64,000 nucleotides of DNA from Eubacteriales bacterium. GTDB taxonomy: Bacteria; Bacillota; Clostridia; Oscillospirales; CAG-272. Where the stretch lies: contig JAZQHV010000026.1 of the NCBI GenBank assembly GCA_045540755.1, forward strand, positions 2,179 through 66,178, written 5' to 3'. The notes beneath the pieces are model-generated. The model searched no databases and was not told the origin of the DNA. It was given only the letters and a program-made list of their open reading frames with translations. The stretch's first letter is position 1. Every line of letters starts with the position of its first letter. Position numbers and translations under genes: made by a program. Below are positions 17,743 through 35,919 of this stretch, in pieces.

Positions 17743-17771
17743 TTGAATAATATTTTTATTTATAGTATGAT
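17743..17771 (+). promoter_or_regulatory. Sigma-A promoter of ACT/UPF0210 genes
   Basis: TTGAAT-17bp-TATGAT in AT-rich divergent spacer. Confidence 0.65.
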
Positions 17772-17807: not shown

Positions 17808-18077
17808 ATGAAAGCAGTTATCACCGTTATCGGCAAGGACCAGGTCGGCATTATCGCCTCGGTCAGCGCAAAATGCGCAGAATACAGTGCAAACATTACC
17901 GAGATCACCCAAAGCGTTCTCGACAAATACTTTGCCATGATCATGATCGCGGACATCGACGGGCTCACCGCCGATTTTGCCGCTTTTTCGGACGCACTCG
18001 CCGATCTCGGCAAGGAGACAGGCCTTGAGATCCGTTGCATGCACGAGGACATCTTCGATGCCATGCATAAAATCTAA
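17808..18077 (+). CDS. ACT domain protein (UPF0237)
   Basis: MKAVITVIGKDQVGII...EDIFDAMHKI; usual partner of UPF0210. Confidence 0.93.
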   Translation: MKAVITVIGKDQVGIIASVSAKCAEYSANITEITQSVLDKYFAMIMIADIDGLTADFAAFSDALADLGKETGLEIRCMHEDIFDAMHKI

Positions 18078-18201: not shown

Positions 18202-19560
18202 ATGATCAATACCCAGGATATCTTAGAAACCATCAACATGATCCGCGAAGAGAACCTCGACGTGCGTACGGTCACCATGGGCGTTTCGCTCTACGACTGT
18301 GTCAGCGACGACGTCGATCGCCTCTGCGACAATATCTACGACAAGCTGATGCGGAGTGCATCCCGCCTTGTCCCCACCGCGGAGGAGATCGAAAAGCTCT
18401 ACGGCATCCCGATCGTCAACAAGCGCGTTTCTGTCACCCCCGTCTCCTACGTCGGCGGCAAAGCAGGTCCCGACGGCTACGTCAAGATCGCCAAAACGCT
18501 TGACCGCGCCGCACACGACCTCGGCATCAACTTTATCGGCGGATACTCCGCGCTCGTGCAGAAAGGCATGACCCGCGGTGCCGACGCCCTCATCGAATCC
18601 ATCCCCGAGGCGCTTGCCGAAACGCAGATGGTCTGCTCCTCGGTCAACGTCGGCTCCACCAAGGCAGGCATCAACATGGATGCCGTTGCCCGCATGGGCA
18701 GGACCGTGAAAAAGGCGGCAGAGCTTACCGCCGACCGCGACGCGATCGGATGTGCAAAATTGGTCGTCTTTGCAAACGCAGTCGACGACAACCCCTTTAT
18801 GGCAGGCGCATTCCACGGCACGGGGGAGAGCGACTGCGTGATCAACGTCGGCGTCAGCGGCCCCGGCGTTGTCGAAAAAGCCATCCGCCGCGCAGGTGAT
18901 TGCGACTTCTCTGCCCTCGCGGACGTCATCAAGAAGACCGCGTTCAAGATCACGCGCGTTGGTCAGCTCGTTGCCTTTGAGGCATCAAAACGCCTCGGCG
19001 TCCCCTACGGCATCGTGGACCTCTCCCTTGCCCCCACGCCCGCGATCGGCGACAGCGTTGCCTGCATCCTCGAATCCATGGGTCTTGAGGTCTGCGGCGG
19101 CCCCGGCACGACTGCGGCACTCGCCATGCTCAACGACGCCGTCAAAAAGGGCGGTGTCATGGCATCCAGCCATGTCGGCGGACTTTCGGGCGCGTTCATC
19201 CCCGTCAGTGAGGACGCAGGCATGATCGCCGCGGCGGAGAGTGGCGTGCTCACCCTCGAAAAACTCGAAGCCATGACCGCCGTTTGCTCGGTCGGTCTTG
19301 ATATGATCTGCATCCCCGGCGACACGAGTGCCGAGACCATCAGCGGCATCATCGCCGACGAGATCGCCATCGGCATGGTCAACAACAAGACCACCGCCGT
19401 GCGCGTGATCCCCGCGCCCGGCAAGGGCATCGGCGACACCGTCGAATTCGGCGGCCTGCTCGGCTACGCACCCGTGATGCGCGTCAATCCCGTTTCCTGC
19501 GAGAAGTTCATCGCGCGCGGCGGCAGAATCCCCGCACCGATCCACTCTCTCAAGAACTAA
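18202..19560 (+). CDS. UPF0210/DUF711 (PFL-like family) protein
   Basis: [49 protein letters not shown]. Confidence 0.95.
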
Positions 19561-19563
19561 CCG

Positions 19564-20685
19564 ATGAAGGTCGTTGTATTCGTCCATCCCGACACCGATG
19601 CTTTCTGGACACAGGTCACCCTCAGCGGCATTGCCGATGAGATCGCGCGCAAGCGCTACACGGCGGAAATTCTGGACGTCAAAGAGGTGCGCGAAATCGA
19701 CTTTGACCGTGTGTTCGCAGGCGAAAAGAAACGTCTGCTCCTTTACATCGGCAACTCCGCGCTGCACCTGCCGCGAGACCTGCACCACCTTGCCGCAAAC
19801 GGCGTACATACCGTTCTCGCCAACCACGAGACCGACCTGCTTTCCGGTAACTGCTCCAAGGTGTTGCTCGACTACCGCGGCGGCATGCATAAGTCGATCT
19901 GCTACCTCACGGCAAATGGGCGGAGGCGCATCGCCTTCTTCGGCGTCAATCCCTCTTCCTCGACCGATCTGCTCAAAAAGAGCTTTTTCGCAGAGTATCT
20001 GCAAAAGCAGGGCGCAAGTGCCGAGCGGGACATCTACTTCAACCACGCTAACATTGAAAGCTGTATCGCGGCTTTCCTGCAAAATTACAAGCTATACAAC
20101 GCCGTCATCTGCGCCAACGACATCGTGGCGCTTGCGCTGATCCGTGCTTGCACCGAGCGGGGCGTGCGCGTGCCGGAAGATCTCTACGTTGCCTCCTGCG
20201 GCGGCTCTTCACTGATCACCGAAGCGGCAAAGATCCCCGTAACAAGCGTGTTCGCCGATCAGCACGAGGTCGGCAGACAGGCAGTGCTCGCCTATGCGAC
20301 GCTTTACAAGAATCACTGCGACGTCGCCCTCACCTTCCACGTCAAGGCAAAGCTGACCGTGCGCGCTTCCACCGCGTTCGCACCCGATCCCGGCGACATC
20401 TTTGACGATCCCGGCGACGCATCCATGCAACCGGATGTCAATTTTTACATAGATCCCGCAATCCGCAAACTGCTGACGGTAGAAACGTTGCTTCGCGAAT
20501 GCGACGAGCTGGATCGCGATATTCTGCACGGATTGCTCACGGGCGAGACCTACCCCTCGCTCGCCGCGCGGCTGTACACCTCTGAAAACGTGATCGCCTA
20601 CCGTGTAAAGCGTATGGGGCGCATCACAGGTACAAACGGCCGCGAGGAGCTGACCGCGCTGATCTCCCCCTATTTGCAAGTATAG
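19564..20685 (+). CDS. Regulator 1: LacI-type sensor domain plus C-terminal LuxR-type HTH
   Basis: YLTANGRRRIA, AVICANDIVA, GVRVPEDL, LTVRAST; C-term DRDILHGLLTGETYPSLAARLYTSENVIAYRVKRM. Confidence 0.8.
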   Translation: MKVVVFVHPDTDAFWTQVTLSGIADEIARKRYTAEILDVKEVREIDFDRVFAGEKKRLLLYIGNSALHLPRDLHHLAANGVHTVLANHETDLLSGNCSKVLLDYRGGMHKSICYLTANGRRRIAFFGVNPSSSTDLLKKSFFAEYLQKQGASAERDIYFNHANIESCIAAFLQNYKLYNAVICANDIVALALIRACTERGVRVPEDLYVASCGGSSLITEAAKIPVTSVFADQHEVGRQAVLAYATLYKNHCDVALTFHVKAKLTVRASTAFAPDPGDIFDDPGDASMQPDVNFYIDPAIRKLLTVETLLRECDELDRDILHGLLTGETYPSLAARLYTSENVIAYRVKRMGRITGTNGREELTALISPYLQV

Positions 20686-20703
20686 CCGAAAGGAGCGATT
20701 CTT

Positions 20704-21807
20704 TTGACGATCAAGATCTACATCCATCCCGAATTTAAGGATACCTTCTGGACACAGCTCACAATGAAGGCGACTGCCGCCGAGATCACGCGCAAGCGTT
20801 ATACGGCGGAGTACATCGAAGCGGAAAGTGTGACCGATATCGACTTTGACAGCCTGTATGCCGAGGGCGAGCGCCGTCTCCTCCTCTACATCGGGCACTC
20901 GGTCTCCGGCACGCCGCGCGACCTCAAATTCCTCACCGATAAGGGCATCCACGTGATCCTCATCAATTACGAGTCCTCGGTGCTGGCAGGCAACTGCTCC
21001 AAGGTGTTGCTCAACTACAGGGACGGTATGCAGAAGATCATCAGCTATTTCACGGCAAACGGTCACGACCGCATTGCCCTGTTCGGCATCAACCCCAATT
21101 CCTCCACCGATATGCTCAAGGATTCCTATTTTGTGGAATATCTGCGTGAGCGCGGCGGGAACCCCACGCGCGATATCTACTACAACTACGGCTCGATCAG
21201 CGGTTGCTTTGCGCGCTTTGCGGAAAACCGCAGTGACTACAACGCCGTCATCTGCGCCAACGACGTCGTCGCTCTTGCGCTGATGCGCTTTCTCAAGGAG
21301 GCGGGCGTCCGCGTGCCTGAGGACATCTACGTTGCCGCCTGTGGCGGCTCCTCGCTGATCAACACCACCATCACCAGCGTGTTTGCCGACCAGTATGAGC
21401 TCGGAAGACAGGCTGTGCTCACCTACGCGCATCTGTACAAAAATCCTTGCGCTGTGGCACTCTCGGTCAAGGTCGAAGCAAAGCTCACCGTGCGCGCCTC
21501 CACCAATTTCGATCCCGATCCGGGTGAGGATCTCGTCACCACGCTGAACAAGCAGGTGCCGAACGTAGATTTCTACGACGACCCCGTCATTCAGGAGATC
21601 TTCCGTCTTGAAGCGCTCTTTCTCGGCTGTGACGAACTGGACCGCGGCATCCTGGCAGGTATCTTGGCGGGTGAGACCTATCCCTGTATTGCCGAACGGC
21701 TGTATACCTCGGAAAACGTGATCTCCTACCGCATCAAAAAGATGTGTAACGTCACCGGCGCAGGCAAAAAGAGCGAGCTCATTGCCCTGCTCAAGCCGTA
21801 TATGTAA
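20704..21807 (+). CDS. Regulator 2, same architecture
   Basis: TTG start after GAAAGGAG; same sensor and HTH motifs. Confidence 0.8.
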   Translation: MTIKIYIHPEFKDTFWTQLTMKATAAEITRKRYTAEYIEAESVTDIDFDSLYAEGERRLLLYIGHSVSGTPRDLKFLTDKGIHVILINYESSVLAGNCSKVLLNYRDGMQKIISYFTANGHDRIALFGINPNSSTDMLKDSYFVEYLRERGGNPTRDIYYNYGSISGCFARFAENRSDYNAVICANDVVALALMRFLKEAGVRVPEDIYVAACGGSSLINTTITSVFADQYELGRQAVLTYAHLYKNPCAVALSVKVEAKLTVRASTNFDPDPGEDLVTTLNKQVPNVDFYDDPVIQEIFRLEALFLGCDELDRGILAGILAGETYPCIAERLYTSENVISYRIKKMCNVTGAGKKSELIALLKPYM

Positions 21808-21834
21808 AAAAGCGCCTTTAACGGCGCTTTTTTT
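21806..21834 (+). terminator. Intrinsic terminator
   Basis: AAAAAAGCGCC-TTTAAC-GGCGCTTTTTTT. Confidence 0.8.
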
Positions 21835-21844
21835 ACGCGAAAAA

Positions 21845-22085
21845 GAGAAGTTGCAGGAGAGTTGTTCCCCTTTGATCCCCTCATCCACCGTTAACACGGT
21901 CCCCCTTCCCCCGAGGGGGAAGGTAATACAGCGCACCAATAGCTTCCCCCCTCGGGGGAAGCTGTCACCGAAGGTGACTGATGAGGGGGTCAAAGACTTT
22001 CAACCTATTATTTATCGGTTGCATAGGTCGGGAGTAAACCCCCGCCCTACGGTTTGAACGCTTCGCCTTCAAACTATAATTTACC
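21845..22085. repeat. Two-site REP cassette B (degenerate GGAA left; two ATAG sites right)
   Basis: CCCTCATC/CTTCCCC-GGGGAAG doublet; sites AACCTATTATTTATC 22002-22016 and AAACTATAATTTACC 22071-22085 flank a CCCCGCCCTAC REP. Confidence 0.8.
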
Positions 22086-22143
22086 GTTTGCCTTATACAA
22101 AAATTTTCCAATATCATTTTACACAAAAATATCGCGAAAAACA

Positions 22144-22172
22144 TTTACACATGAAGCGTTTTGCGGTATAGT
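22144..22172 (+). promoter_or_regulatory. Putative sigma-A promoter of regulators 3-5
   Basis: TTTACA-17bp-TATAGT. Confidence 0.6.
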
Positions 22173-22201
22173 AAAGAAAAAGCAAAGAAGGAGGCGGCAG
22201 C

Positions 22202-23323
22202 GTGAAAGTCAAGATCTTCCTGCAATCGAATACCAAAAACGACTTCTGGATCCAACAAACGCAAAAAGCGCTTGCCGCAGAGATCCTGCGCAAACGGTAT
22301 ACCGCCGAATACATTGAGGCGCTCGATGTAAGTACGCTTGACCTCGACAGTCTCTTTGCCGCAGGTGAGCCGCGCGTGCTTCTCTACCTCGGCTACTCCA
22401 AGCTCGGCGCACCCAAAAATCTCACGCATCTTGTCGAGCGCGGTATCCATCCGATCCTCGTCAACAACGGACTTGCTAACTTTTCGGGCAGTTGTTCCCG
22501 TGTGTTCATCAACTATCGCGATGCCATCGAAAAAGCCATCGGCTACTACACGGAAAACGGGCGCAATCGCATCGCGCTCTACGGCATCAATCCCTCCTCA
22601 CCCACCGACAAGATCATGGAAAACTGCTTTGCCGACCACCTTGTCGCAAACGGTAAGGATCCTGCCCGTGACATCTACTACAACTATGCCTCCATCACGG
22701 CATGCTGTGCCGAATTTTTGCCGCACGCACGCGCATACAATGCCGTCATCTGCGCCAACAACATCGTCGCGGTGACGCTTCTCAGCAGTCTGCGCGCCGA
22801 GGGCATCCGTGTGCCGGAGGACATACAGCTCCTCTCTCTCGGCGTGTCTACTCTGCTTGCAGAGCAGGCGTCCGTGCCGATCACCACGGTCTCTGCCGAC
22901 CATGATTCCATCGCAAGGCAGGCGATCACCGCCTACACGCTTTTGCGAAAGTACAGCGGGGAGACAACGCTGACCATGCGCGTGGCTCCGCAGTTTCATA
23001 TCCGCGCCTCGACTGCATTTGCACCGTTGCCTGCTACCTTTTCCCCCGCGTTTCCCATCACCGAAAAAACGCCGTCGGTCAACTTTTACAAGGATCCCGT
23101 TGCCAAAGAGGTCTTTGCCGTGGAACAGCTTTTGCTTGGGTGCGATACGACCGATCTTGCGATTCTTACACGTCTGCGACAGGGCGTTTCCTACCCGAAG
23201 ATCGCCGACGAGCTCTTCACCTCGGTCAACACGGTCTCCTACCGTGTGAAACGGATGTGTCGCCTTGCAAAATGCGAGAGCAAAGAGGAGTTGATCGCAC
23301 GCATCTCCCTCTACCTGCAATAA
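22202..23323 (+). CDS. Regulator 3, same architecture
   Basis: GTG start after AAGGAGG; AVICANN, GIRVPEDI; GVSYPKIADELFTSVNTVSYRVKRM. Confidence 0.8.
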   Translation: MKVKIFLQSNTKNDFWIQQTQKALAAEILRKRYTAEYIEALDVSTLDLDSLFAAGEPRVLLYLGYSKLGAPKNLTHLVERGIHPILVNNGLANFSGSCSRVFINYRDAIEKAIGYYTENGRNRIALYGINPSSPTDKIMENCFADHLVANGKDPARDIYYNYASITACCAEFLPHARAYNAVICANNIVAVTLLSSLRAEGIRVPEDIQLLSLGVSTLLAEQASVPITTVSADHDSIARQAITAYTLLRKYSGETTLTMRVAPQFHIRASTAFAPLPATFSPAFPITEKTPSVNFYKDPVAKEVFAVEQLLLGCDTTDLAILTRLRQGVSYPKIADELFTSVNTVSYRVKRMCRLAKCESKEELIARISLYLQ

Positions 23324-23341
23324 AACGAAAGGAGCAGAATC

Positions 23342-24451
23342 TTGAACGTCCACATCTTTATCCACCCCAACGAACGCAATATGTTCTGGGCAAAGCGAAC
23401 GCAAAAAGCGATCGCCGCCGAGATCCTGCGCCGCCGTTTTACCGCCGATTATATCCATGCCGCCTCGGTGTGGGAGATCGACTTTGACAAGGTTTTTGCT
23501 AAAGATGAAAAGCGCGTGATCCTGTACATCGGCATCCAAACGCCGAACGAGATCGACTATCTGACCACGCACGGTGTGCACACCGTCCTTGTCAACAACG
23601 ATTTCGCCGACTACTCCGCCACGCACTCTCGCGTGCTCATCAATTACCGCAGTGCGCTCAACAAGGCCATGAGCTATCTACTTGCAAACGGGCGGGATCG
23701 CGTCGCGCTCTACGCAATCAATCTTGCCTCGGCGACCGACCGTATCATGGAAACGCGTTTTTCCGAGATCCTGCGTGCAAGCGGTGAGGAGCCCTCCCGC
23801 GACATCTACCACAACCGCACCTATATCAGCGAGTGCTACGCGCGTTTTGCGCCGCACCGCTCTGCCTACAATGCCGTGATCTGCGCAAACGATATTTCCG
23901 CCGTGGATCTGCGCCGCCGCCTTACCGCAGACGGCATCCGTGTCCCCGAGGATATGTTTATCCTTTCCTGCAGTCCTTCCTCTGTGCTTGTGGAACAAAA
24001 CGGCACCTCCATCACGACCATCTCCGCCTCCCGTGAGGAGATCGGCACACAAGCGATCTACATTTATTCCCTGTTGGCGCGCAATCCCACCGATATTACA
24101 CTTTCCGCGCACGTCGAACCCGTGCTCATCCCGCGCGCCTCGACCGCCTTTGCTCCCGAGCCGGAGAATCCGCTTCTGTTCGGCTATTATTCGCCGCACG
24201 TCGCGGCAAAATTCTACGAGGATCCCGTCACGCAGAGCTTTTTCAGTGTGGAAAACCTGCTCCTCCATCAGGATGACCTGGACCGCGCGATCATCGAGGG
24301 CTTGCTCGCAGGCGAAAGCTATTCGGCAATCGCCGAGCGCACCTACACGACCGCCAACATGATCACCTACCGCGTCAAAAGGATGTGTCGCCTGACAGGA
24401 TGCTCCGACCGTGCGGCATTGCTCACGCTTATCACGCCGTATCTGAAATAA
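23342..24451 (+). CDS. Regulator 4, same architecture
   Basis: TTG start after GAAAGGAG; AVICAND, GIRVPEDM; GESYSAIAERTYTTANMITYRVKRM. Confidence 0.8.
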   Translation: MNVHIFIHPNERNMFWAKRTQKAIAAEILRRRFTADYIHAASVWEIDFDKVFAKDEKRVILYIGIQTPNEIDYLTTHGVHTVLVNNDFADYSATHSRVLINYRSALNKAMSYLLANGRDRVALYAINLASATDRIMETRFSEILRASGEEPSRDIYHNRTYISECYARFAPHRSAYNAVICANDISAVDLRRRLTADGIRVPEDMFILSCSPSSVLVEQNGTSITTISASREEIGTQAIYIYSLLARNPTDITLSAHVEPVLIPRASTAFAPEPENPLLFGYYSPHVAAKFYEDPVTQSFFSVENLLLHQDDLDRAIIEGLLAGESYSAIAERTYTTANMITYRVKRMCRLTGCSDRAALLTLITPYLK

Positions 24452-24468
24452 CGAAAGGAGGTGCGCGC

Positions 24469-25587
24469 ATGCGGATCTTTATCTACGTACAGCCCGACGT
24501 CAAGGATACCTTTTGGACCAAGCAAACACAAAAGGCGATCGCGGCGGAGATCCTGCGCAAGCGCCACACCTCCGTATATCTGCACGGCGCGACCGCAAGC
24601 GAGATCGACCTTGACGCCGCTTACGCGGGCGAAGAAAAACGCATTCTTTTGTACGTCGGCACGTCGCTGAAAAAAACACCCGTTGACCTCGCCTTTCTCG
24701 CAGAGCACGGCGTACACATCATCCGCATACACAGCGGAAGCGACTCCTTCCCCGCCGACTGCTCCCGCGTTCTGCTCAACTATCACGATGCCATCGAAAA
24801 AGCCATCTGCTACCTTGTGGGAAACGGGCACGACCGCATTGCGCTTTTCGGTGTCAACCCCTATTCGCACACCGATATAGAGATGAAAAACCGTTTCTCG
24901 GCATATCTCCGTTCCAAGGGGGCATCCGCACAGCGCGATATCTACTACAGCCGCGCCTCGATCGCCGATTGCTACGCAAGCTTTTTCCCCTATTGTGCCG
25001 CGTACAACGCCGTCATCTGTGTCAACGACATGGCGGCGATCACGCTTTTGCACCGTCTGAAGGCAGACGGCGTGCGCGTACCCGAGGATCTCTATATCGT
25101 TTCCTGCGGACTCTCCTCGGTATTTGCCAATCACCCCTCCACCGCGATCACCTCGGTCTCTGCCGACCGTGACGCCATCAGCGCGCAGGCAGTCTTCGCC
25201 TACGCTACACTCCTGCGTGCCTCCGCCGACATCACGTTGAATCTGCGCGTAGCGGCAAAGCTGACCGTGCGTGCCTCCACCGACTTTGCCCCCATCCCTT
25301 GGGGGAAACGGTTTACGCCACACTCGTTTTCCCCCGTACCTATAGATTACTTCTCCGATCCCGCCGCCAAGCGGTTTTACAGCATTGAAAGTCTCCTGTC
25401 CTCCTGTGACGAGACCGATGCGGGCATCCTCGACGGTCTGCTCGTGGGTGAGAGCTACTCTGCCATCGCCGAGCGGCTGTTCACCTCGCGCAACATGGTC
25501 TCTTATCGCGTCAAGCGCATGTGCCGCCTGACCGAATCTGCCAACCGAGAGGATCTCGTCGCACTCCTTCGACCGTATCTGGAATAA
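24469..25587 (+). CDS. Regulator 5, same architecture
   Basis: ATG 24469 after GAAAGGAGG; AVICVND, GVRVPEDL; GESYSAIAERLFTSRNMVSYRVKRM. Confidence 0.8.
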   Translation: MRIFIYVQPDVKDTFWTKQTQKAIAAEILRKRHTSVYLHGATASEIDLDAAYAGEEKRILLYVGTSLKKTPVDLAFLAEHGVHIIRIHSGSDSFPADCSRVLLNYHDAIEKAICYLVGNGHDRIALFGVNPYSHTDIEMKNRFSAYLRSKGASAQRDIYYSRASIADCYASFFPYCAAYNAVICVNDMAAITLLHRLKADGVRVPEDLYIVSCGLSSVFANHPSTAITSVSADRDAISAQAVFAYATLLRASADITLNLRVAAKLTVRASTDFAPIPWGKRFTPHSFSPVPIDYFSDPAAKRFYSIESLLSSCDETDAGILDGLLVGESYSAIAERLFTSRNMVSYRVKRMCRLTESANREDLVALLRPYLE

Positions 25588-25622: not shown

Positions 25623-25852
25623 GTTAAATTAGTAGCGCTAAACCGTAGGGCGGGGGTTTATCTCCCGCCGTAAACGTAGCGCTAAATTATAGTTTGAAGT
25701 TGTTTGCGAAAAACCCCTCATCCGTCGCTAATGCGACACCTTCCCCCGAGGGGGAAGGTAATACAGCGCACCAATAGCTTCCCCCCGGGGGGAAGCTGTC
25801 ACCGAAGGTGACTGATGAGGGGGTCCAAGCCCCCTTCAACTTCCAATTTATT
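25623..25852. repeat. Two-site REP cassette C (ATAG, ATAG ... GGAA)
   Basis: Near reverse complement of cassette H without its 78-nt insert; GCTAAATTATAGTTT 25681-25695, AACTTCCAATTTATT 25838-25852. Confidence 0.85.
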
Positions 25853-25857
25853 GCGCG

Positions 25858-25885
25858 AAAAAGGAAGGCGAAAGCCTTCCTTTTT
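25858..25885 (-). terminator. Intrinsic terminator
   Basis: AAAAAGGAAGGC-GAAA-GCCTTCCTTTTT. Confidence 0.85.
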
Positions 25886-25892: not shown

Positions 25893-27380
25893 CTATTCTT
25901 CGATCGACTGCATCATCTGGTTGATGAGGTCGATCATGCGTTCTGCGGAAACGCGATAGGTCTCGTACATCGAGGCAATGGGCGTGCGCGTGACGTAGAT
26001 CTGGGACATCTTCGAGTTGTAACTGCCGATCTTGTAGTATGCGCCAAGGTCAAAGACGTGCGTTGCATAGATGATATCCAGCATCTCGGCGCTTTCCTCA
26101 TCGCGGACGTATCTGCCGACCAGCGTCTGGTCGTAGAACGCAGGCGTGAGCAGGCGGAGTCCCTGATATGCCAGCTCCTCCAGCACAATGCCCGTGCGCT
26201 CGTAGTCCTTTGCCATCTTAGGTACGCAGACGAACTGCGAATGGAAGGCGCTGACCGCATGGCCAAAGCGCTCCTGATTTTCGTCCAGCTTGGGGTACGG
26301 CAGAATGCCGAAATCGGTCTCGCTGTCGCGGTGGCGCTCGACCGTTTCCACCAGCGTCATGTAGAACACCGCGCGATCCTCGTTGAAGATGGCATCGCGG
26401 TTGGGGTCCCACGTAGCAAGCAGGGTCGCTTTGCCCGTAACGTTGTCATATTGGTAGTTATAGGAATGTGCCTGGTCGAACACGAGGTCGAAATAGCGGT
26501 CATAGAGGTTGAGTACGCGCTCGTTGTAGAAGGTGAGGTGGATAAGTCCGTCCTCGCCGACCGAGGCAATGCGCTCACCCGAGCAGGCAAGGATCGCGGT
26601 GGTCGGGTCGTTCCATGTGAGGATGCCGTAACGGTCGTGCTCGTTATAGATGCCGTCCTGGTTGAGGTCCTCTCCCACGCTCTTGGCGATGCGCGCGTAG
26701 GACTCCATCGTCCACTCGTCGTCGCGGACGAGCTGATAAGGATCCTCAAGACCGTACTCCGCGATCATGTCCTTGTTGAAGAGGATCGCGTGGGTCATGA
26801 GGTTGTCCACGTGGCTGATGTCGCCCGTGGAATAGTACATTCTGCCGTTGACGGCGAGATCCGCGTTGGCGCGCTGATCCCAGTAGGGCTTCGTAAGATC
26901 GACGTAGGGCGTTTGGTTCAGGTCGTGCAGGTAGCCGCCGTAGGCAAGCGTTGCCACGTCGTACGGACCGATGGAGGCGGCGTCGTACAGACCTTCGCCC
27001 GCCATATAGTCGTTGTAGACGGTCTTAAAGCCCGTACCGCTTCCGTTGGTGGAGCCGAATTCGATGAGGTCTTCATCGACGATCTCCACGCCGTATTTTT
27101 CCTTCAGCAGTTCGTTGCGGCGGAAGATCGCCGTTTCCACTGCGGTGCCCTCCTCGCCCTCGGCGTGGAAGTCGTTGCGCTCGATGTTGGCGCTGACGAG
27201 GATGTTGAACGTGCCTGCGATGTCGACCGTTTCGGGATCGGGCAGGTCGGGGGAATACGCCTCGTCGGGAGATGCGGTCACGGGAGATGCAGGCGCCGTA
27301 GTCTCGGCGGGCGTGCCGCCGCACGCCGCAAGCGCAAGCAACATCAGCGCCGCAAGCAGAAGTGCAAGAAGTTTTTTCAT
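25893..27380 (-). CDS. Extracellular solute-binding lipoprotein, paralog 3
   Basis: Lipobox LAAC; FNKDMI, DLNQDG, DFGILPYPK, RDEESAEMLDII. Confidence 0.85.
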   Translation of the reverse strand: MKKLLALLLAALMLLALAACGGTPAETTAPASPVTASPDEAYSPDLPDPETVDIAGTFNILVSANIERNDFHAEGEEGTAVETAIFRRNELLKEKYGVEIVDEDLIEFGSTNGSGTGFKTVYNDYMAGEGLYDAASIGPYDVATLAYGGYLHDLNQTPYVDLTKPYWDQRANADLAVNGRMYYSTGDISHVDNLMTHAILFNKDMIAEYGLEDPYQLVRDDEWTMESYARIAKSVGEDLNQDGIYNEHDRYGILTWNDPTTAILACSGERIASVGEDGLIHLTFYNERVLNLYDRYFDLVFDQAHSYNYQYDNVTGKATLLATWDPNRDAIFNEDRAVFYMTLVETVERHRDSETDFGILPYPKLDENQERFGHAVSAFHSQFVCVPKMAKDYERTGIVLEELAYQGLRLLTPAFYDQTLVGRYVRDEESAEMLDIIYATHVFDLGAYYKIGSYNSKMSQIYVTRTPIASMYETYRVSAERMIDLINQMMQSIEE

Positions 27381-27400
27381 GATAGTCTCCTTTGTAGAGA

Positions 27401-27588
27401 GATAAATTGGAATTTGAAGGGGGAGTTAGTTTGGTAAAAAGGAATCCTCCACCCGCCAAAGGCGGGAGCCCCCTTTGACAAGGGAGCCTTGGTTTCATCG
27501 CATTTGAGCCTCCCTTGTTAAAGGGAGGGGGACCGTTTACGGTGGTGGGATTCTTCTTTCTCAAACAACTTTCAACCTATAATTTATC
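27401..27588. repeat. Two-site REP cassette D (GGAA ... ATAG)
   Basis: GATAAATTGGAATTT 27401-27415; CCCTTT..CAAGGGAG doublet; AACCTATAATTTATC 27574-27588. Confidence 0.85.
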
Positions 27589-27594
27589 GTTTGT

Positions 27595-29442
27595 TCAGTC
27601 GAGAATGACACTCGGCCAGCGGGAGGTGTCCACGCCGCCGACGCTTGTCATTGCATCTGCGGTGATGCCCTCGGCATCACGGTTGTACAGGATCGGCGAG
27701 ATGGAAAATGCGTTTCTGCCGAGCATGCCGACCGCACTGCGCGGCAGAGCGATCTCGTAGAGCACGCCTTCGTCGGTATCGCTGTTGTCACCGACCGTGC
27801 CATAGACCTTCACCGCCGCCTTGTCTGCGGCAAAGCTGCTCTTTTCAGTACCGCCCGTGACGTAAGAAACGGTCACGCCGCCGTCCATGTCCACGCGGAC
27901 GCGATAGAAACGGAAGGTATCCAGCGCAACGCAGATCTCGATCGCGTCGTCCGCCGTCAGGTAATTGTCAAGGCGGCTGACAAGGAAGTACAGATTTTCC
28001 GCATCGTGCGCGGTCTGTACCGTCATCTGCGCCTGCGTTTCGCTGCCGACAAAGTGTGCATCGGTGTTGGTACGCCACTCCATGCCGTCTCCGTCCACGG
28101 TGGCGGTCATTTTTTTCGCATTCGTGCGGTGATTGAGGTAAGAATGCTCCAGAATCAGCGCCGAAATATTGGTCACCTTATCCAGCCTTTGTGCGGCGGT
28201 GATGACCTCGTGCGTACCGACAAGCTCACAGCAGGTCCACATGCCTCTGCCCTCGGGCACGGTCACAAATTCAAAGGAGTCATACTCCTTGCCGTCGGGA
28301 CGGATCATGCGGCCGTAGAACAGCTTCTGACCGTCGTTATGGTAAGCGCAGTAGACCTCACCCGACGGGAAAGTGGCAAGGTACGGGCCTGCGCCCGTGA
28401 AATTCTCGCGGTAGTCGCTACCGTTTGTGGTCGCGCCGTCCTTAAGATCCTCCTCCCAGAGTCCGCCGTCGGCGCTGACCGTCATGCCGATCGTAAACTT
28501 GATGGGATCGAGGGTCTTGACCTCTGCCGCAAGGAGCGTTTTTCCATTATACAGGCGGGTCGCCGCAGGCATCTGCGCCGAGAACCACGGCAAAATGCCT
28601 GCCTCGGGCGCCTCGGTATGCGTTTTTCTGCCAACGTACTGGCTGAACGCGATAAAGGGCTGATAGTAGTTGGTGTCGCCCGCCTGTACGTTCGGCGTCC
28701 AGGTGTAGCCGCCGTCATCCGACCAGACAAGTCCGATCGCGCCCGCGCGGTGGTCGGCATCATAGCCGTACTTGCGCATGTAATAGGAGCCACTGGAGAA
28801 GTAGACCTCGATGCGGCCGTCGTCACGTTGCCAGATGAACGGCTCCCAGTTGCCGCCCGTATAGATACGGGTCGGCTCGCCCCACGTGATGGTGTTGTCG
28901 GCGGCGATGGTGCCGCGGCGCGTCCAGAGACCGCCGTGCTCGGGATACTGCACGCGCCCATCCGCGTTATTGAGGCGCAGATAGTACACGCAGAGGAGTT
29001 CTCCGTTGTCAAGCAGAGTCACGTCCACATTGACACCGCAGAACTTGTCCGTCTTGCCCGCAAGCGGGCCGTCGGGATAGGTAAATGCGTTTGCCACACT
29101 GTAATAGAGATATTCGGGCGCGCTCCAATGGATGCCGTCGGGCGAGGTACACCAGTAGAGATGCGTACCGATCTGCCCGTACATAAAGGTCATAAGGTAG
29201 AGGTCGTCCTTCAGCTTTTTCACGCGCGGGTAATACGCCATATCATAGCGCGTCTGCCCCGTAGAGGCGGACGAAAGGGTCAGCGACTCGCGGTAACTGC
29301 GCTCCAAAGAAGCGGTGGTGTAATCCTCGCCGACGTGGCTGTTTGTCACCGCCTCGGTGTTCAGCTCCTTGATCGTGGGGAGCTGCGCAAAAGCCGTGAG
29401 CGTGAGCAGTGCCGCAAAGAAAATGCAGAATAATTTCTTCAT
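27595..29442 (-). CDS. Secreted Asp-box (BNR) sialidase-like beta-propeller with C-terminal CBM9/DOMON-like domain, copy 1
   Basis: Signal peptide; YYPR, TSPDGIHW, WEP, SDDGGYTW; C-term TVDGDGMEW, AHDAENLYFLV, YEIALP. Confidence 0.7.
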   Translation of the reverse strand: MKKLFCIFFAALLTLTAFAQLPTIKELNTEAVTNSHVGEDYTTASLERSYRESLTLSSASTGQTRYDMAYYPRVKKLKDDLYLMTFMYGQIGTHLYWCTSPDGIHWSAPEYLYYSVANAFTYPDGPLAGKTDKFCGVNVDVTLLDNGELLCVYYLRLNNADGRVQYPEHGGLWTRRGTIAADNTITWGEPTRIYTGGNWEPFIWQRDDGRIEVYFSSGSYYMRKYGYDADHRAGAIGLVWSDDGGYTWTPNVQAGDTNYYQPFIAFSQYVGRKTHTEAPEAGILPWFSAQMPAATRLYNGKTLLAAEVKTLDPIKFTIGMTVSADGGLWEEDLKDGATTNGSDYRENFTGAGPYLATFPSGEVYCAYHNDGQKLFYGRMIRPDGKEYDSFEFVTVPEGRGMWTCCELVGTHEVITAAQRLDKVTNISALILEHSYLNHRTNAKKMTATVDGDGMEWRTNTDAHFVGSETQAQMTVQTAHDAENLYFLVSRLDNYLTADDAIEICVALDTFRFYRVRVDMDGGVTVSYVTGGTEKSSFAADKAAVKVYGTVGDNSDTDEGVLYEIALPRSAVGMLGRNAFSISPILYNRDAEGITADAMTSVGGVDTSRWPSVILD

Positions 29443-29451
29443 GGCGCCTCC

Positions 29452-31851
29452 TTACTTCACAAGCGTCGCCGTGGAAGTCGCGCCGTCCCATGCCACGGTT
29501 GCGCCCATTGCCTCCGCAACCACGCGGACGGGCAGGTAGGTGCGGCCGCTTTCGATGAATGCGGGTGCATCCAACGTGACGGTCTTGCCGTTAATGGAGG
29601 CAGTCGCGGCGCCGACCTTGATGGCAATATCAATGCCGTTTCCCTTGATGGTGACCGAGGAAGTCGCGCCGTCCCAGCCGACCGTGCCGCCGAGGTTCTC
29701 GGCTACGAAGCGGACGGGGAGCATGGTTCTGCCGCTTTTGATCATGGGTGCGGCATCCAGCGCCTTGGGCTCGCCGTTGACGTAAGCGGTCTTCTGCCCG
29801 ATGGTAAGGCGAAGCTCGGTAGCGTCTCCCGTGTATTCCACGACGGTGCCGCCGTTGTTTTCAATGGTAAATGCCGCCATCGCCGCCTTGGAGAGGATGG
29901 CAGTTCCCTTTTCCTCGATCACGAGGGTAAAGGTGGGCTTGACACCCGACTTTGCAAGAAACTGCACGGTATCGGTAACGACCAGCACGCCGCCGCGGCC
30001 GACGGTGAGGGTGTTCTTCGTGCCCTCCTGGAAAAGGTGGATGTTGTCAAAGGTCAATTCACTCACGAGGGTTAGGTTGATACCGTTCTTCAGGCGCAAC
30101 GCACCTGCGGGCGCATCGGCGGGCTGTGCGTTTCTGTAGTCCACGCCGCCGTACACTGCAGTGATGGTGGTGGGACCGTAGGTCTTGGCAAAGGTGTAGT
30201 TTGCCGTGATCGCCGCTCTGCCGACCGTGACGATGGTGCCGCCGTCGGGAATGAGACCGTAGCAATGCGTAGAGAGCGTACCGAAGCTCATCTTGGGAGT
30301 CTTCGGCGTAAGACCGTCGTTGTCATTGGTCGCGGAGGAATCGTAGTACACCACGCTGACGATGCCGTTCTGCGGGCCGTTGCCGTCCACCTTGGGCGGC
30401 TCGGGAATGGCAACCGTCTCTGCTTTATGTACTGCGGGCACAGGGCACTTTGCACCCATCACCCATGCGGAAAAGTCCAGACCTGCAAAGGTGTCCTTTT
30501 TTGCCATATCGGCAAGGGAAAATGCCTTGGCACCCGAAACGTCGTATGCCTCGACGTTGACGCCGACTGCGCGGGACGAGAGGTCGGCATAGAAGCAATT
30601 TTGCAGGTGGCGGATCTCGGTGCCTGCGGTGGTGCCGATGATACCGCCCTGATTTGCGCTATTGGAAACGATACCCGAAAGGAATACGCAGTTTTCAACG
30701 TGCACGCCACGGCTTCTGCCGAGAATACCGCCTGCCGCACCCGCCTCGACAGACGCGGTCACAAGACAGTTTTCGATCACGGAGGGAGCCTCCTCGCTGC
30801 CGTCCTCACTCTGTGCATAGCCGATGATGCCGCCTGCGTAGGTGCCGCCCTTGACACTGCCCGTTACGGTGCAGTTTTTGACAAAGGAGGCAGTGCCCTT
30901 GCAAGCACTGGCACGGAGGGAGTAGCCGATGATACCGCCCGCAAACTTGTTGCTCTCGACGTTACCGCTGACAAAGCAGTTTTCGATCTGCAAAGCACTG
31001 CTTGTCTTGGAAACGATCTCGGCACGGCCTGCGATACCGCCAACGTTGGGGAAATTGGACTCGGTCTTGTTGGTGTTGGTGCCGACGAGGTTACCCGTGT
31101 TCCGACAGGCATCGAGGATGACGGCACCTGCGTTGATGCGGAGGTAGCCGACGATGCCGCCGAAGCGGGCGCGGTCGTTTGAGGTATAGGTGATGTCCGC
31201 GCGGTTTTCACAACCGTTGACCGAAACGGCAGGATGGCACTCGGTCTGCACCTGAATGCGGCCGAGCACGCCGCCGTGGTTACCGTAAGTACAAGACAGC
31301 TCGCCCTCGTTTACGCAGTCCGTGATCTCCACGGGGGCAACGCCGTAGTTGTGCGCGATGCCGACCACGCCGCCGAGATTACAGGGACCGATGACCTTGG
31401 CCTTGTTGACACAGTTGATCACAGAGGTGCCCGTCATGGCAATGCCGACCACGCCGCCCGTTGCGCAGTAGTTGCCGCCGAACTTGGTCTCGGCATTGGT
31501 GGCGGCCGCCGCGTTGCGCACCTCGCCCGCGACGGTGAGATTTTCGATGAGCGCACCCTCGGTAACGGCAAACAGACCTGCACACTCGGTGCCGATGACC
31601 TGCACGGTCACGGTAAAGCCGTTTCCGTCAAAGTGGCCGCTGTAGGGCTTTGCATAGTTACCGATGGGAAGCTGTGCCTTGCCCGTGAGGTCGATGTCCG
31701 CAGTGAGGGTAAAGTCCTCGCCCCAGCGGTTCGGATCGTTCATCACGGCAACAAGCTCCTCTGCCGTGCCGATCTTTGCCGCCGATGCGCCAAAGGCAAG
31801 CGCAAGCACAAGGATCGCCGCCAAAGCAGCGTACAAGCATACTCTTTTCAT
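29452..31851 (-). CDS. Secreted GLUG-repeat protein with C-terminal copper-amine-oxidase N-terminal (stalk) domain, copy 1
   Basis: LTADIDL, FDGNG, repeated GG(I/V)(V/I)G..NC motifs; C-term GRTMLPVRFVAENLG, GRTYLPVRVVAE; ATG 31851 after GGAGG. Confidence 0.75.
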   Translation of the reverse strand: MKRVCLYAALAAILVLALAFGASAAKIGTAEELVAVMNDPNRWGEDFTLTADIDLTGKAQLPIGNYAKPYSGHFDGNGFTVTVQVIGTECAGLFAVTEGALIENLTVAGEVRNAAAATNAETKFGGNYCATGGVVGIAMTGTSVINCVNKAKVIGPCNLGGVVGIAHNYGVAPVEITDCVNEGELSCTYGNHGGVLGRIQVQTECHPAVSVNGCENRADITYTSNDRARFGGIVGYLRINAGAVILDACRNTGNLVGTNTNKTESNFPNVGGIAGRAEIVSKTSSALQIENCFVSGNVESNKFAGGIIGYSLRASACKGTASFVKNCTVTGSVKGGTYAGGIIGYAQSEDGSEEAPSVIENCLVTASVEAGAAGGILGRSRGVHVENCVFLSGIVSNSANQGGIIGTTAGTEIRHLQNCFYADLSSRAVGVNVEAYDVSGAKAFSLADMAKKDTFAGLDFSAWVMGAKCPVPAVHKAETVAIPEPPKVDGNGPQNGIVSVVYYDSSATNDNDGLTPKTPKMSFGTLSTHCYGLIPDGGTIVTVGRAAITANYTFAKTYGPTTITAVYGGVDYRNAQPADAPAGALRLKNGINLTLVSELTFDNIHLFQEGTKNTLTVGRGGVLVVTDTVQFLAKSGVKPTFTLVIEEKGTAILSKAAMAAFTIENNGGTVVEYTGDATELRLTIGQKTAYVNGEPKALDAAPMIKSGRTMLPVRFVAENLGGTVGWDGATSSVTIKGNGIDIAIKVGAATASINGKTVTLDAPAFIESGRTYLPVRVVAEAMGATVAWDGATSTATLVK

Positions 31852-31970
31852 GGGATACCTCCGAAGAATATTTCTACAATTATATAATACCATTTCCGTT
31901 TTGCACCGTCAACTCGAAAATCCGCTTCAAAATCCGCAGTAAAAATCCACAAAGTCGGAGGGGTAAATGC

Positions 31971-32254: not shown

Positions 32255-33742
32255 TTATTCTCCGATCGACTGCATGCTTGCGTTGATGATCTTGATCATC
32301 TGCTCTGCGGAAGTGCGATAGGTCTCGTACATCGAGGACAGAGGCGTGCGGTCGCGATGCTGTGCTTTGATCTTGGTCTCATAGCTACCGACCTTGTAAT
32401 AGGAGCCAAGGTCGTAAACACGCGTTGCAAACACGATATCCAGCATATCCACACTCTCTTCGTCGCGGACGTATCTGCCGACGAGCGACTGCTCATAGTA
32501 TGCAGGTGTCATCAGCTGGAGTCCCTGATATGCCAGCTCCTCGAGCACGATGCCGCTGCGCTCGTAATCCTTTGCCATTTCGGGCACGCAGATAAACTGC
32601 ACGTGGTACGCGCTGATGCTATGACCGTACTCCTCCTGCTCGGCGTCCATCTTGGGATACGGCAGGATGCCGAAGTCGGTCTGGCTGTCACGGTAGCGCT
32701 CTACGGCACCCATGGTCTGCATGTAGAAGAGGACGCGGCTCTCATTGAACATGGCGTCACGGTTCGTATCCCATGCGGCAGTAGAGGGCACGGTGCCGGT
32801 GTTTGCATCATACTGATAGCTGAAGCAATGCGCCTGATCGTATGCAAGCTCGCGGTAGCGGTCAAACAAGTTGACCACACGCTCGCTGTACAGTGTCAGC
32901 GCGATCTCGCCGCTCTCTTTCACCGAGCAGATCTTCTCCCCTGCCGCCGCAAGAATACCCATCCAGGCATCGTTCCAGGTCAGAATGCCGTACTTGTCCT
33001 TTTCGTCATAGATACCGTCCTGATTGACGTCCTCGCTGACCGCCTTGCCGAGGCGGGAGAAGCTCTCCAGCGTCCACTCGTTGTCGCGGACAAGCGTATA
33101 CGGGTCATCCAGTGCATATTCGTCTACGATATCCTTGTTGAAGAGGATCGCCATCGTGCAGACGTTATCGTTGAACGCAATATCGCCGGTGGTGTAATAC
33201 ATCTTGCCGCCGATCGCAAGGTCGGCGTTTGCCTTCTGATCCCAATAGGGCTTCGAAAGGTCGATGTACGGCGTATCGTTCAGGTCGTGCAGATATCCGC
33301 TGTAGGACAGGGTCGCGATATCGTATGCGCCGATCGAAGCGGCATCATACGCGCCCTCGCCTGCCATATAGTCGTTGTAAATGGTGGTAAAGCCTGTGCC
33401 GCTGCCGGTGATGGAGCCGAACTTGGAAATGTTATCGTTCACGATCTCCACGCCGTACTTTTCCGCCAGCACTGCGTTTCTGCGATGGATCGCGATCTGC
33501 ACGGCAGTTCCCTCGGAATTTCCCTCGAAGTCGTCGCGTGCGGAGTTGCCGCTGACGAGAATGCGGAATTCGCCGTCGATGTCAAGCGACTTGGGATCGG
33601 GCAGTTCGGGCGCGCCGTCATCGGGCGCATCGGTGCTGACTGCCGCATCGGAGGATGCGGTCGTCTCGGCGGGCGTGCCGCCGCATGCCGCAAGCGCAAG
33701 AAGTATTGCAAGTGCAAGAAGCGTTGCAAGAAGTTTTTTCAT
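32255..33742 (-). CDS. Extracellular solute-binding lipoprotein, paralog 4
   Basis: Lipobox LAAC; closest to 25893..27380 (GGTPAETTA, GRYVRDEES). Confidence 0.85.
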   Translation of the reverse strand: MKKLLATLLALAILLALAACGGTPAETTASSDAAVSTDAPDDGAPELPDPKSLDIDGEFRILVSGNSARDDFEGNSEGTAVQIAIHRRNAVLAEKYGVEIVNDNISKFGSITGSGTGFTTIYNDYMAGEGAYDAASIGAYDIATLSYSGYLHDLNDTPYIDLSKPYWDQKANADLAIGGKMYYTTGDIAFNDNVCTMAILFNKDIVDEYALDDPYTLVRDNEWTLESFSRLGKAVSEDVNQDGIYDEKDKYGILTWNDAWMGILAAAGEKICSVKESGEIALTLYSERVVNLFDRYRELAYDQAHCFSYQYDANTGTVPSTAAWDTNRDAMFNESRVLFYMQTMGAVERYRDSQTDFGILPYPKMDAEQEEYGHSISAYHVQFICVPEMAKDYERSGIVLEELAYQGLQLMTPAYYEQSLVGRYVRDEESVDMLDIVFATRVYDLGSYYKVGSYETKIKAQHRDRTPLSSMYETYRTSAEQMIKIINASMQSIGE

Positions 33743-33762
33743 GATAGTCTCCTTTGTAAAAA

Positions 33763-34059
33763 GAGAAATTGGAATTTGAAAGACTTTCAGTTCAAAGATC
33801 CCTCACATACGTTCGGGATGACAAGCCGAGGTTGCTTTAGGGTGCTTTAGTTTGTCATTCCGAGCAACGCGAGGAATCTGCGAACAAGAGCGATAAATTG
33901 GAAGTTGTTTGGCAAAGAACCCCTCATCACCCGCTCCGCGGGAGCTTCCCCCCAGGGGGAAGCTATTCGTGCGCTGTATTACCTTCCCCCTCGGGGGAAG
34001 GTGGCGGCGAAGCCGTCGGATGAGGGGTTTTTCGCGTCCTCTTCAAACTATAATTTATC
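33763..34059. repeat. Two-site REP cassette F (GGAA, GGAA ... ATAG)
   Basis: Sites at 33763-33777, 33892-33906, 34045-34059; cargo 1 AGATCCCTC..GGATGACA/TGTCATTCC..GGAATCT doublet; cargo 2 CCCTCATC/GGGGAAG doublet. Confidence 0.85.
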
Positions 34060-34065
34060 GTTTGT

Positions 34066-35910: not shown

Positions 35911-35919
35911 GGCGCCTCC

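Follow-up and report, generated by a model that had tools for sequence, protein, structure and literature searches.

Five tandem regulators with an N-terminal LacI-type sensor and a predicted C-terminal LuxR-type DNA-binding domain in a Clostridia genome

Regulators that carry a LacI-type sensor are the main bacterial link between sugar availability and gene expression, and they are widely used as parts in synthetic biology. In E. coli XylR, the DNA-binding domain that follows the sugar sensor is of the AraC type, and in B. subtilis AraR the domain foreign to the LacI-type sensor is a winged helix of the GntR type, placed at the N-terminus. BguR, from marine Bacteroidota, is reported to be a one-component activator of 940 aa, membrane-spanning, whose glycan sensor (a periplasmic tandem beta-propeller) is joined by a helical linker to a C-terminal GerE-like helix-turn-helix (HTH); it adjoins the genes that it controls, and the intergenic region between regulator and targets contains a conserved motif (bioRxiv 10.64898/2026.01.10.698779). 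In this work we analysed a stretch of 64,000 nucleotides from a Eubacteriales bacterium of the CAG-272 lineage (assembly GCA_045540755.1, contig JAZQHV010000026.1, positions 2,179 to 66,178), hereafter the window. At 19564-25587 (+) it harbours five co-directional paralogs of 367-373 aa, with a pairwise identity of 44-57% in their alignment. These genes probably encode cytoplasmic one-component regulators, in which a dimeric LacI-type sensor controls paired C-terminal LuxR-type HTHs and acts mainly on the divergent neighbour. What is new is an unnamed combination of two well-known modules, and not a new principle.

Sensor and C-terminal domains of the five paralogs

The five genes, all on the + strand, are as follows.

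19564-20685, +: paralog 1, ATG start, 373 aa; Peripla_BP_3 E 3.3e-22. Sensor at residues ~1-275 (nt 19564-20388), low-confidence linker at 276-296, HTH at 297-373 (nt 20452-20682)
20704-21807, +: paralog 2, TTG start after AAAGGAG, 367 aa; Peripla_BP_3 E 1.1e-18
22202-23323, +: paralog 3, GTG start after AAGGAGG, 373 aa; Peripla_BP_3 E 2.2e-18
23342-24451, +: paralog 4, TTG start after AAAGGAG, 369 aa; Peripla_BP_3 E 3.3e-15
24469-25587, +: paralog 5, ATG start after AAAGGAGG, 372 aa; Peripla_BP_3 E 2.5e-16 (longer frame scored)

Pfam placed Peripla_BP_3 on residues ~112-270 in all five paralogs (E 3e-22 to 3e-15), above the cut-off in each case (57-80 bits vs. 26.5). The two-lobed effector domain of LacI/GalR proteins, which resembles a type I periplasmic binding protein (PBP), is present in every one of them. 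DNA repeat families cross the array with a period of ~1131-1143 nt; given this period and the strength of the Peripla_BP_3 matches, a five-paralog array with a common sensor is far beyond chance. A first reading of the letters, made without database searches (the sequence-only reading), had quoted motifs for the sensor (G..RIA, AVICAND, G.RVPED, L.VRAST) and for the C-terminus (...IA.RL(Y/F)T..N...YR.K.M), and all of them were found in the alignment.

The full-length AlphaFold2 (AF2) model of paralog 1 was built from a 31-row alignment (predicted local distance difference test score, pLDDT, 87.7; predicted template modelling score, pTM, 0.68). It shows a beta-strand from residue 2, an alternating beta/alpha two-lobed pattern up to ~275, a linker at residues 284-290 with pLDDT <50, and then five helices (298-312, 315-325, 330-336, 341-355 and 360-367). 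Foldseek aligned this model to LacI-family cores (best E 1.7e-15, ~280 aligned columns, TMt up to 0.80). Sequence matches of the sensor in the Protein Data Bank (PDB) were CelR (E 3e-8), the AraR sensor 3tb6 (E 1.1e-5) and XylR (E 0.03). The LacI-family equivalogs of NCBIfam remained far below threshold and covered the sensor only. Across 87 diverse members of the family, the nearly invariant positions of the sensor are A124, S132, D135, N185 (in the CAND motif), L192 and G237.

The LacI-type HTH and hinge helix expected at the N-terminus of a LacI/GalR protein were not found in the five paralogs, and PF00356 (LacI HTH) had no match in them among the Pfam results at E<=1. Paralog 1 starts 3 nt past the stop of the preceding DUF711 gene, in the same frame. 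The upstream gaps are 3-18 nt for paralogs 1, 2, 4 and 5, and the open frames of all five reach only a few codons upstream, the out-of-frame overlap of paralog 5 excepted. The 17-18 nt gaps between the genes, the short upstream frames and the beta-strand already formed at residue 2 leave no space in which the five paralogs could encode an HTH at the N-terminus.

The last 83 residues were also folded alone (30 rows, pLDDT 96), giving helices at 25-35, 40-46, 51-65 and 70-77. In this predicted model the domain is a LuxR/GerE four-helix bundle, with the HTH made by helices 2-3 and followed by a fourth helix. Nearly all the Foldseek rows listed from the PDB were LuxR/FixJ/NarL/GerE proteins (E 5e-3 to 0.17, probability 0.99-1.00), with a root-mean-square deviation (rmsd) of 1.2-1.5 A over 54-62 columns for isolated domains. 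VIA-align against 48,161 chains gave Z scores of 10.4 for DegU, 9.7 for GerE (65/67 residues, 1.8 A), 9.5 for NarL and 9.1 for DosR. The top 18 rows were all LuxR-type; PucR-like, CodY and sigma region 4 domains came below them, at Z <=8.7. At the level of sequence, Pfam listed GerE for paralog 3 only (E 8.5e-4, 19.3 bits vs. a cut-off of 23.5) and for none of the other four. HTH_18 and HTH_AraC had no Pfam match at E<=1 in the five paralogs, whose tail is a single ~60-residue four-helix unit. The PDB sequence search with the C-terminal profile returned weak matches to AsnC (E 0.005) and to LuxR-family proteins (E 0.1-1.5); its top matches, to an ABC transporter (E 2.5e-4), were spurious and were discarded. 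The C-terminal domain, as modelled, is thus of the LuxR/GerE type at fold level and borderline to the Pfam GerE model. In its third helix, Y346 is invariant and R347 nearly so among the 87 diverse members. The order proposed by the sequence-only reading (sensor first, HTH last, no HTH at the N-terminus) was confirmed by Pfam, the AF2 model, Foldseek and VIA-align, and the C-terminus folds as an HTH in the prediction.

Mean pairwise identity among the five paralogs was lowest in the linker (20%), similar in the sensor (49%) and the C-terminal domain (51%), and highest in the recognition helix (341-355; 62%). Positions 3 and 5 of this helix vary among the paralogs (E/V/A/R and V/T/M, respectively). 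The claim that the recognition helix is strongly conserved while the sensors diverge was therefore overstated (62% vs. 49%). The proposal built on it, that the paralogs sense different ligands and read similar operators, loses ground as well, with sensor and HTH diverged almost equally (49% vs. 51%, or 62% for the recognition helix).

A homodimer was predicted with a score of 0.51, vs. 0.00 for the best control; among reference cases, 20 of 30 solved homodimers and 1 of 23 single chains attained this mark. The runs agreed in at least 74% of the contacts, the pLDDT of the partner was at least 78, and the interface was formed by residues 235-263 of the C-lobe. As LacI dimers have already been solved, this result may come from likeness to them.

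Distribution of the family and its neighbouring genes

A word-indexed search retrieved 78 clusters (90% identity) that match the full length at E<=3.6e-45, the next match being a classical LacI protein at 55 bits. The few members that have a name are called 'substrate-binding domain-containing protein [Clostridia bacterium]'. When the C-terminal profile was searched exhaustively, it retrieved 888 representatives (50% identity) at E<=1e-3, 315 of them at E<=1e-10. The 150 matches listed were mostly proteins of 330-410 aa in which the profile aligned to the C-terminal end. Matches set aside as non-members were fragments, proteins with tandem HTH repeats (P0121-P0123 and others) and P0262, a SpaA repeat adhesin. 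Among the repeat proteins, P0121 (740 aa), P0122, P0123, P0126-P0131 and others carry 4-12 tandem copies of a ~55-aa HTH module (…ILELLEKGLSQKEVGEQLGVS..AISKRIKKMRERGV.IP…), and the recognition helix of this module resembles the ISYRxKRM motif of the regulator family.

Among 87 full-length representatives, Peripla_BP_3 was found in 71, HTH_24 in 34, HTH_30 in 29 and GerE in 27 (E<=1e-3, best 5.7e-8). In the ESM Atlas, the matches listed included 30 look-alike clusters of 53-152 members, all from Bacillota, with names such as 'hypothetical' or 'periplasmic binding protein-like' and, in one case, the automatic name 'LuxR C-terminal-related'. We confirmed 175 relatives in species-representative genomes and kept 79 loci, all 79 of which have the C-terminal domain. 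Almost all of these loci belong to metagenome-assembled genomes (MAGs) of Clostridia (Oscillospiraceae, Acutalibacteraceae, Christensenellales, Lachnospiraceae and Ca. Limiplasma); the set further includes one MAG of Paenibacillaceae and a cultured organism, Anaerofilum hominis BX8, which has three copies, two of them next to DUF5107 genes (L081). The named carriers are all Bacillota, and mostly MAGs of gut Clostridia. Literature searches, including a search within PMC3466318, found no description of an architecture combining Peripla_BP_3 with GerE/LuxR. The family is real, comprises hundreds of clusters, and is without a name or a characterisation in the literature searched. It is larger than the sequence-only reading had implied; the case that this reading named as refuting it, a large characterised family with the same architecture, did not come up in the literature searched.

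The family is moderately widespread in gut Clostridia and unusually expanded in this genome. Among 400 genomes drawn evenly from the class, 29 (in 23 of 217 genera) matched at E<=1e-8 with 1-4 matches each, usually 1-2, vs. 10 in this genome. All 18 other species of the window's genus carry the family (1-7 copies at E<=1e-6, vs. 12 in this genome, which is 70% complete). The same draw contained twelve genomes of other families in the order, none with a match; in the class sample, two genomes of the same order did match. All 12 Peripla_BP_3 matches of this genome belong to the family; its single PF00356 LacI HTH lies elsewhere (C8:30854-30979). Tandem arrays of 2-3 members occur in relatives, at the loci L009-L011, L065, L071, L081 and L083 and in the genomes G405, G406, G409, G411, G413 and G414.

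Next to the regulator, one gene recurs. In 36 of the 67 loci outside this genus (L020-L086), the regulator and a DUF5107-TPR homolog are divergently transcribed neighbours separated by 34-275 nt, and in 49 of the 67 such a homolog is present somewhere in the stretch fetched. Pfam confirmed DUF5107 and TPR in L034, L073 and L081. The protein (~1050 aa) has no signal peptide and is cytoplasmic; the single solved structure related to it, 5cd6, comes from structural genomics and is labelled 'TPR-domain containing protein', and a literature search for DUF5107 returned one unrelated paper only. The genes referred to are:

L034, 4647-7763, -: DUF5107-TPR gene
L073, 4685-7828, -: DUF5107-TPR gene
L081, 4739-8074, -: DUF5107-TPR gene
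L002, 8679-11831, +: DUF5107-TPR gene

The downstream genes in L020-L086 vary, and often encode glycoside hydrolases (GH16, GH5, GH39, GH42-like) or a glucuronyl esterase. Downstream in L034 there are a solute-binding protein (SBP) and a BNR_2-like protein, homologous to cassette proteins of the window described below.

In this genome, each of the seven scattered copies has a divergent neighbour within roughly 40-170 nt, while the five-gene array has no divergent partner. The neighbours are:

Copy C82: DUF5107-TPR homolog
Copy C44: SBP lipoprotein, paralogous to the four of the window
Copy C19: protein of 1440 aa with VanY and a dockerin (L004:8624-12946)
Copy C61: protein of 1744 aa with a dockerin and a weak M14 match (L003:1521-6755)
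Copy C70: protein of 1287 aa with a dockerin and a weak M14 match (L005:2838-6701)
Copy C33: protein of at least 2084 aa with a GDSL lipase (L007:8749-15000)
Copy C1: open reading frame of 524 aa, cut at the contig end, weakly like the GLUG-domain protein of the window (L006:8597-10168)

The neighbours of C1, C19, C33, C61 and C70 have signal peptides, and those of C1, C19, C61 and C70 visibly share an N-terminal segment (A-D-K/T/V-V-Y/F-L/V...). Type I dockerins end three of the five secreted neighbours (C19, C61, C70). Secreted neighbours bearing dockerins hint that this gut Clostridium may display proteins through a cellulosome-like system.

Layout and history of the array, candidate operator and possible targets

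Upstream of the paralogs, and in the spacers between them, the following features were annotated.

17743-17771: promoter-like site 5' of the ACT gene (pattern scan)
17808-18077, +: ACT-domain protein, 89 aa, first gene of the operon (NCBIfam PRK00194 'ACT domain-containing protein', E 5e-33)
18202-19560, +: DUF711/UPF0210 protein (Pfam DUF711, E 2e-197)
21808-21835, +: terminator-like hairpin and T-run, AAAAGCGCC-TTTAA-CGGCGCTTTTTTT, seen by eye and not listed by the pattern scan
21850-22100, strand not assigned: copy of an interspersed palindromic repeat, with a second copy at ~25640-25830
22144-22172, +: promoter-like site 5' of paralogs 3-5, TTTACA-17-TATAGT, 10/12 matches (consensus match only)
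25858-25885, strand not assigned: 12-bp stem, terminator-like, separating the array from the convergent SBP gene

The intergenic gaps are 17-18 nt between paralogs 1/2, 3/4 and 4/5. Paralogs 2 and 3 are separated by a 394-nt spacer that contains the hairpin, a copy of the interspersed repeat and the promoter-like site. Because this spacer holds a terminator-like hairpin and a promoter-like site, the array appears to be divided into two operons, ACT-DUF711-P1-P2 and P3-P4-P5; the latter ends at the hairpin 25858-25885, common with the convergent gene. Shine-Dalgarno-like AAAGGAG or AAGGAGG precedes four of the five starts, and the three TTG/GTG starts reported by the sequence-only reading are correct (paralogs 2, 3 and 4). 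For paralog 5 we prefer ATG 24469, because AAAGGAGG precedes it and the alternative GTG 24385 overlaps paralog 4 and is not preceded by a ribosome-binding site. The whole window had no match in Rfam at gathering thresholds.

The DUF711 gene is directly 5' of the regulator or regulators in all 12 of the closest related loci (L008-L019), where the conserved order is SBP-like / Alr / two small genes / DUF711 / regulator. In the window, the ACT gene lies 5' of DUF711; its product is UPF0237-like, and the pair stands directly 5' of the regulators. The number of regulators is 1-3 per locus in L008-L019, and copies of the array type number 1-3 in genomes of the genus (E<=1e-36) vs. five here, indicating that an old locus downstream of ACT-DUF711 has expanded to five genes in this lineage. 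A FastTree tree of 85 members, read for its topology only and without support values, groups (P1, P2) and (P3, (P4, P5)), and close orthologs of each paralog occur separately in other assemblies. The duplications are thus old and retained rather than a recent amplification, since every paralog has its own close orthologs elsewhere. By eye, no shared motif was visible in the DUF711-to-regulator spacers of L008-L019, which are filled by unrelated repeats and hairpins.

The interspersed palindromic repeat is ~110-250 bp long, rich in CCCCC/GGGGG hairpins, and has no Rfam match. It gave 72 matches in the 2.33-Mb assembly; further copies in the window lie near 33917, 41877, 48236 and 60685. It probably breaks the assembly, because many matches lie exactly at contig ends. 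The P3-P5 block is flanked by two copies, in a register that is partly direct and partly inverted. The repeat is not specific to this locus, and it may have mediated a rearrangement at this block.

A candidate operator was sought with a palindrome-constrained Gibbs sampler trained on 30 partly de-duplicated regions upstream of regulators (24 DUF5107-divergent spacers and 6 regions from this genome). The sampler converged on nAAAAAaTncgnAtTTTTTn, with an information content (IC) of 9.49 bits. Mononucleotide shuffles are too lenient for A/T tracts, so real intergenic controls were relied on: in fifteen random sets of 30 intergenic regions, taken from the same loci, as AT-rich as the targets and with promoters, the mean IC was 7.66 (sd 0.20, max 7.93). 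AAAA-N6-10-TTTT was present in 20 of 30 target regions vs. 18 of 75 controls (Fisher p 8.6e-5), and the reversed order in 11 of 30 vs. 18 of 75 (p 0.23). The A5-N8-T5 inverted repeat is a lead to a candidate operator. On inspection by eye, several A5-N8-T5 sites are placed immediately past the -35-like TTGTCC/TTGACA in front of the divergent gene, a position that would suit an activator. Counting words upstream of eight regulator operons of this genome, we found GTGAAA 8 times vs. 0.93 expected (p 6e-6, 679 words); it is present in 5 of the 8 regions, some of which are paralogous, and is a lead only.

Two cassettes converge on the array (domains by Pfam).

25893-31893, -: cassette 1; SBP lipoprotein 25893-27380, BNR_2-like protein 27595-29442, surface protein with GLUG and Cu_amine_oxidN1 29452-31893
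32255-38415, -: cassette 2, a paralogous copy; SBP 32255-33742, BNR-like protein 34066-35910, Cu_amine_oxidN1 protein 35920-38415

The paralog pairs of the two cassettes match at phmmer E 1e-226 to 1e-263, and all six proteins have signal or lipoprotein N-termini. The window contains four paralogous solute-binding lipoproteins of ~500 aa (2166-3671, 3937-5439, 25893-27380 and 32255-33742; mutual E <=1e-196). Pfam detected neither a permease nor an ATPase gene of the ABC type in the whole 64-kb window. Genes homologous to SBP and BNR-like ones adjoin regulators of the family in L034, L073, L001 and L004, which favours a link between array and cassettes. The link is one of adjacency and circumstantial, and both cassettes are candidate targets only.

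Proposed mechanism, alternatives and comparison with known systems

In the mechanism that we propose, the LacI/PBP-type two-lobed effector core would be dimeric, probably through the C-lobe, and a flexible linker of ~20 residues with an extra helix would join it to the C-terminal four-helix HTH of the LuxR/GerE type. A small molecule, most likely derived from carbohydrate, would bind in the cleft between the lobes. Binding would alter how the two C-terminal HTHs of the dimer engage an inverted-repeat operator, and nearby genes would be switched, by repression or by activation. The usual target across the family appears to be the gene divergent from the regulator: outside the genus the cytoplasmic DUF5107-TPR protein, and in this genome a giant secreted protein (dockerin, VanY, M14 or GDSL) or an SBP lipoprotein.

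Several observations, in the operator, the sensor, the joint between the domains and the HTH, weigh against this mechanism. The A5-N8-T5 motif is of low complexity, and the loci used for training are partly related by descent. A position weight matrix (PWM) scan of the window for it gave no strong site at the promoters of the array or the cassettes; the best matches in the window scored 9.3-11.6, vs. a training median of 10.6, and were located elsewhere. The best intergenic ones (upstream of the SBP genes at 3877 and 5458, and in the Ddl|RluA spacer) were not used as evidence. The SBP/BNR/GLUG cassette was absent from the 8-kb flanks of the 12 syntenic relative loci. Consequently, the earlier proposal that the array controls the convergent glycan cassette and the orphan SBP genes is left with the homologs beside regulators in the four loci named above, and finds no backing in syntenic flanks or operator matches.

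A bolder version goes further and can be offered only tentatively, as we find it doubtful as a whole. In it, an 'inverted LacI' would be an undescribed major class of glycan-responsive activators of gut Clostridia, which would largely have taken the place of classical LacI repressors in this genus (12:1). It would read an A5-N8-T5 operator just upstream of the divergent -35 and switch on secreted dockerin or cell-surface proteins, SBP lipoproteins and a cytoplasmic DUF5107-TPR enzyme, and the array would form mixed dimers that integrate several glycan signals.

In the sensor, the GYDD segment of the LacI family aligns to S-C-G-G/V/L/P-S-S in the five paralogs, and the Asp pair is absent. In LacI, this pair includes a residue that contacts the sugar inducer. 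Because it is replaced, the effector may not be a simple sugar, may be unusual, or may not exist. The last case corresponds to a DNA-binding regulator with a ligand-less LacI-like core, used as a dimerisation scaffold or informed by a partner protein, in the way that HPr-Ser-P signals to CcpA. Besides the loss of both Asp residues in all five paralogs, CcpA is the best NCBIfam match of paralogs 3-5 (E 2e-8 to 4.5e-7, far below the cut-off), and the array adjoins no catabolic sugar operon. However, S132, D135 and N185 in the region of the cleft, which presumably line the pocket, are nearly invariant over 87 members, and the neighbours of the family are often carbohydrate-active (GH16, GH5, GH39, GH42-like, GH43 and glucuronyl esterase). 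On balance, a core without a ligand seems unlikely to us.

The placement of the HTH relative to the core is not predicted (linker pLDDT <50, pTM 0.68), and the HTHs lie outside the predicted dimer interface. Dimers need not be formed by identical chains: P1/P2 and P3/P4/P5 might pair as heterodimers, so that the array would combine several signals on operators held in common. Such pairing is compatible with the mechanism proposed above. The two tight operons with 17-18 nt gaps, an interface (235-263) of average conservation, the similar recognition helices (62% identity) and the tandem arrays of 2-3 in relatives all fit this idea. Nevertheless, each paralog has its own orthologs, sometimes single-copy in relatives, so each must be able to work alone, and we consider mixed pairing quite improbable.

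The class of the C-terminal HTH is ambiguous by sequence. The Pfam cut-offs of GerE, HTH_30 (PucR) and HTH_AsnC-type models were never reached in the five paralogs, HTH_24 exceeded its own in paralog 3 only (23.9 vs. 21.9 bits), and HTH_24 and HTH_30 match family members about as often as GerE. The Foldseek E-values of the domain are all >0.001, as expected at ~60 residues, and PucR-type structures align as well (9f80 at Z 8.7, 3onq at Z 7.7). It is nonetheless very improbable that this domain is a PucR-type or sigma-region-4-like module acting mainly through protein contacts with RNA polymerase or a sigma factor: HTH_30 is the most consistent sub-threshold Pfam match (four of five paralogs, E 3e-4 to 0.02), and PucR-like 9f80 and sigma region 4 domains (Z 6.4-7.2) do align, but LuxR/GerE proteins fill the top 18 VIA-align rows and nearly all Foldseek rows listed (rmsd 1.2-1.8 A over the four-helix unit), the conserved fourth helix is present here and missing from the sigma region 4 matches (model range ending at ~67), Y346 and R347 are conserved in the third helix, and PucR HTHs bind DNA too, so that the functional difference would be small.

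If the proposed mechanism is correct, the family offers a natural test of sensor modularity, as the hinge-helix mechanism of LacI cannot transmit the signal when a different DNA-reading domain stands at the opposite end of the protein. Regulon reconstructions for uncultured gut Clostridia, in which the family is common, miss it, because public records say only 'substrate-binding domain-containing protein'. The conserved association of the family with DUF5107-TPR offers a way into the study of that protein, and its place beside secreted proteins with dockerins suggests how gut Clostridia could control extracellular machinery. The cultured carrier Anaerofilum hominis BX8 makes experiments feasible.

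Among the known systems, E. coli XylR (PDB 4fe4/4fe7) has the same order, as the sequence-only reading had pointed out: it is a cytoplasmic one-component protein with a PBP/LacI-like sugar sensor at the N-terminus and a DNA-binding domain at the C-terminus. Its sensor match is weak (E 0.03, query 109-274), with a sequence likeness far below that of LacI-family cores. The five paralogs differ from it in their tail, a LuxR/GerE four-helix HTH without an HTH_18 or HTH_AraC match; as they do not have the AraC-type double HTH, they are not XylR-type. Proteins of the LacI/GalR family (CelR 5ysz, CcpA, PurR, LacI) share the fold of the effector core, the family motifs and the C-lobe interface predicted here. 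They differ in having their own N-terminal HTH and hinge helix and the GYDD segment, whereas the five paralogs would read DNA at the opposite end, with another class of HTH, and are outside the LacI/GalR family as defined by its N-terminal HTH.

AraR (3tb6) is also a chimera of a LacI-type sensor and a foreign DNA-binding domain (Foldseek E 2.9e-13, sequence E 1.1e-5); the foreign domain is N-terminal there, and LuxR-type and C-terminal here. The same four-helix HTH is found in GerE 1fse, NarL 1je8, DegU 7x1k and DosR 1zlk (Z 9.1-10.4, rmsd 1.4-1.8 A, 65-66 residues). In LuxR-type proteins, such as response regulators and autoinducer receptors, the HTH is likewise C-terminal after a linker helix, and its partner is a receiver, autoinducer-binding, PAS or ATPase domain, vs. 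a LacI-type sensor in the five paralogs. BguR is like them in logic and non-homologous outside the HTH, the paralogs being cytoplasmic proteins of ~370 aa with a LacI-type sensor (bioRxiv 10.64898/2026.01.10.698779).

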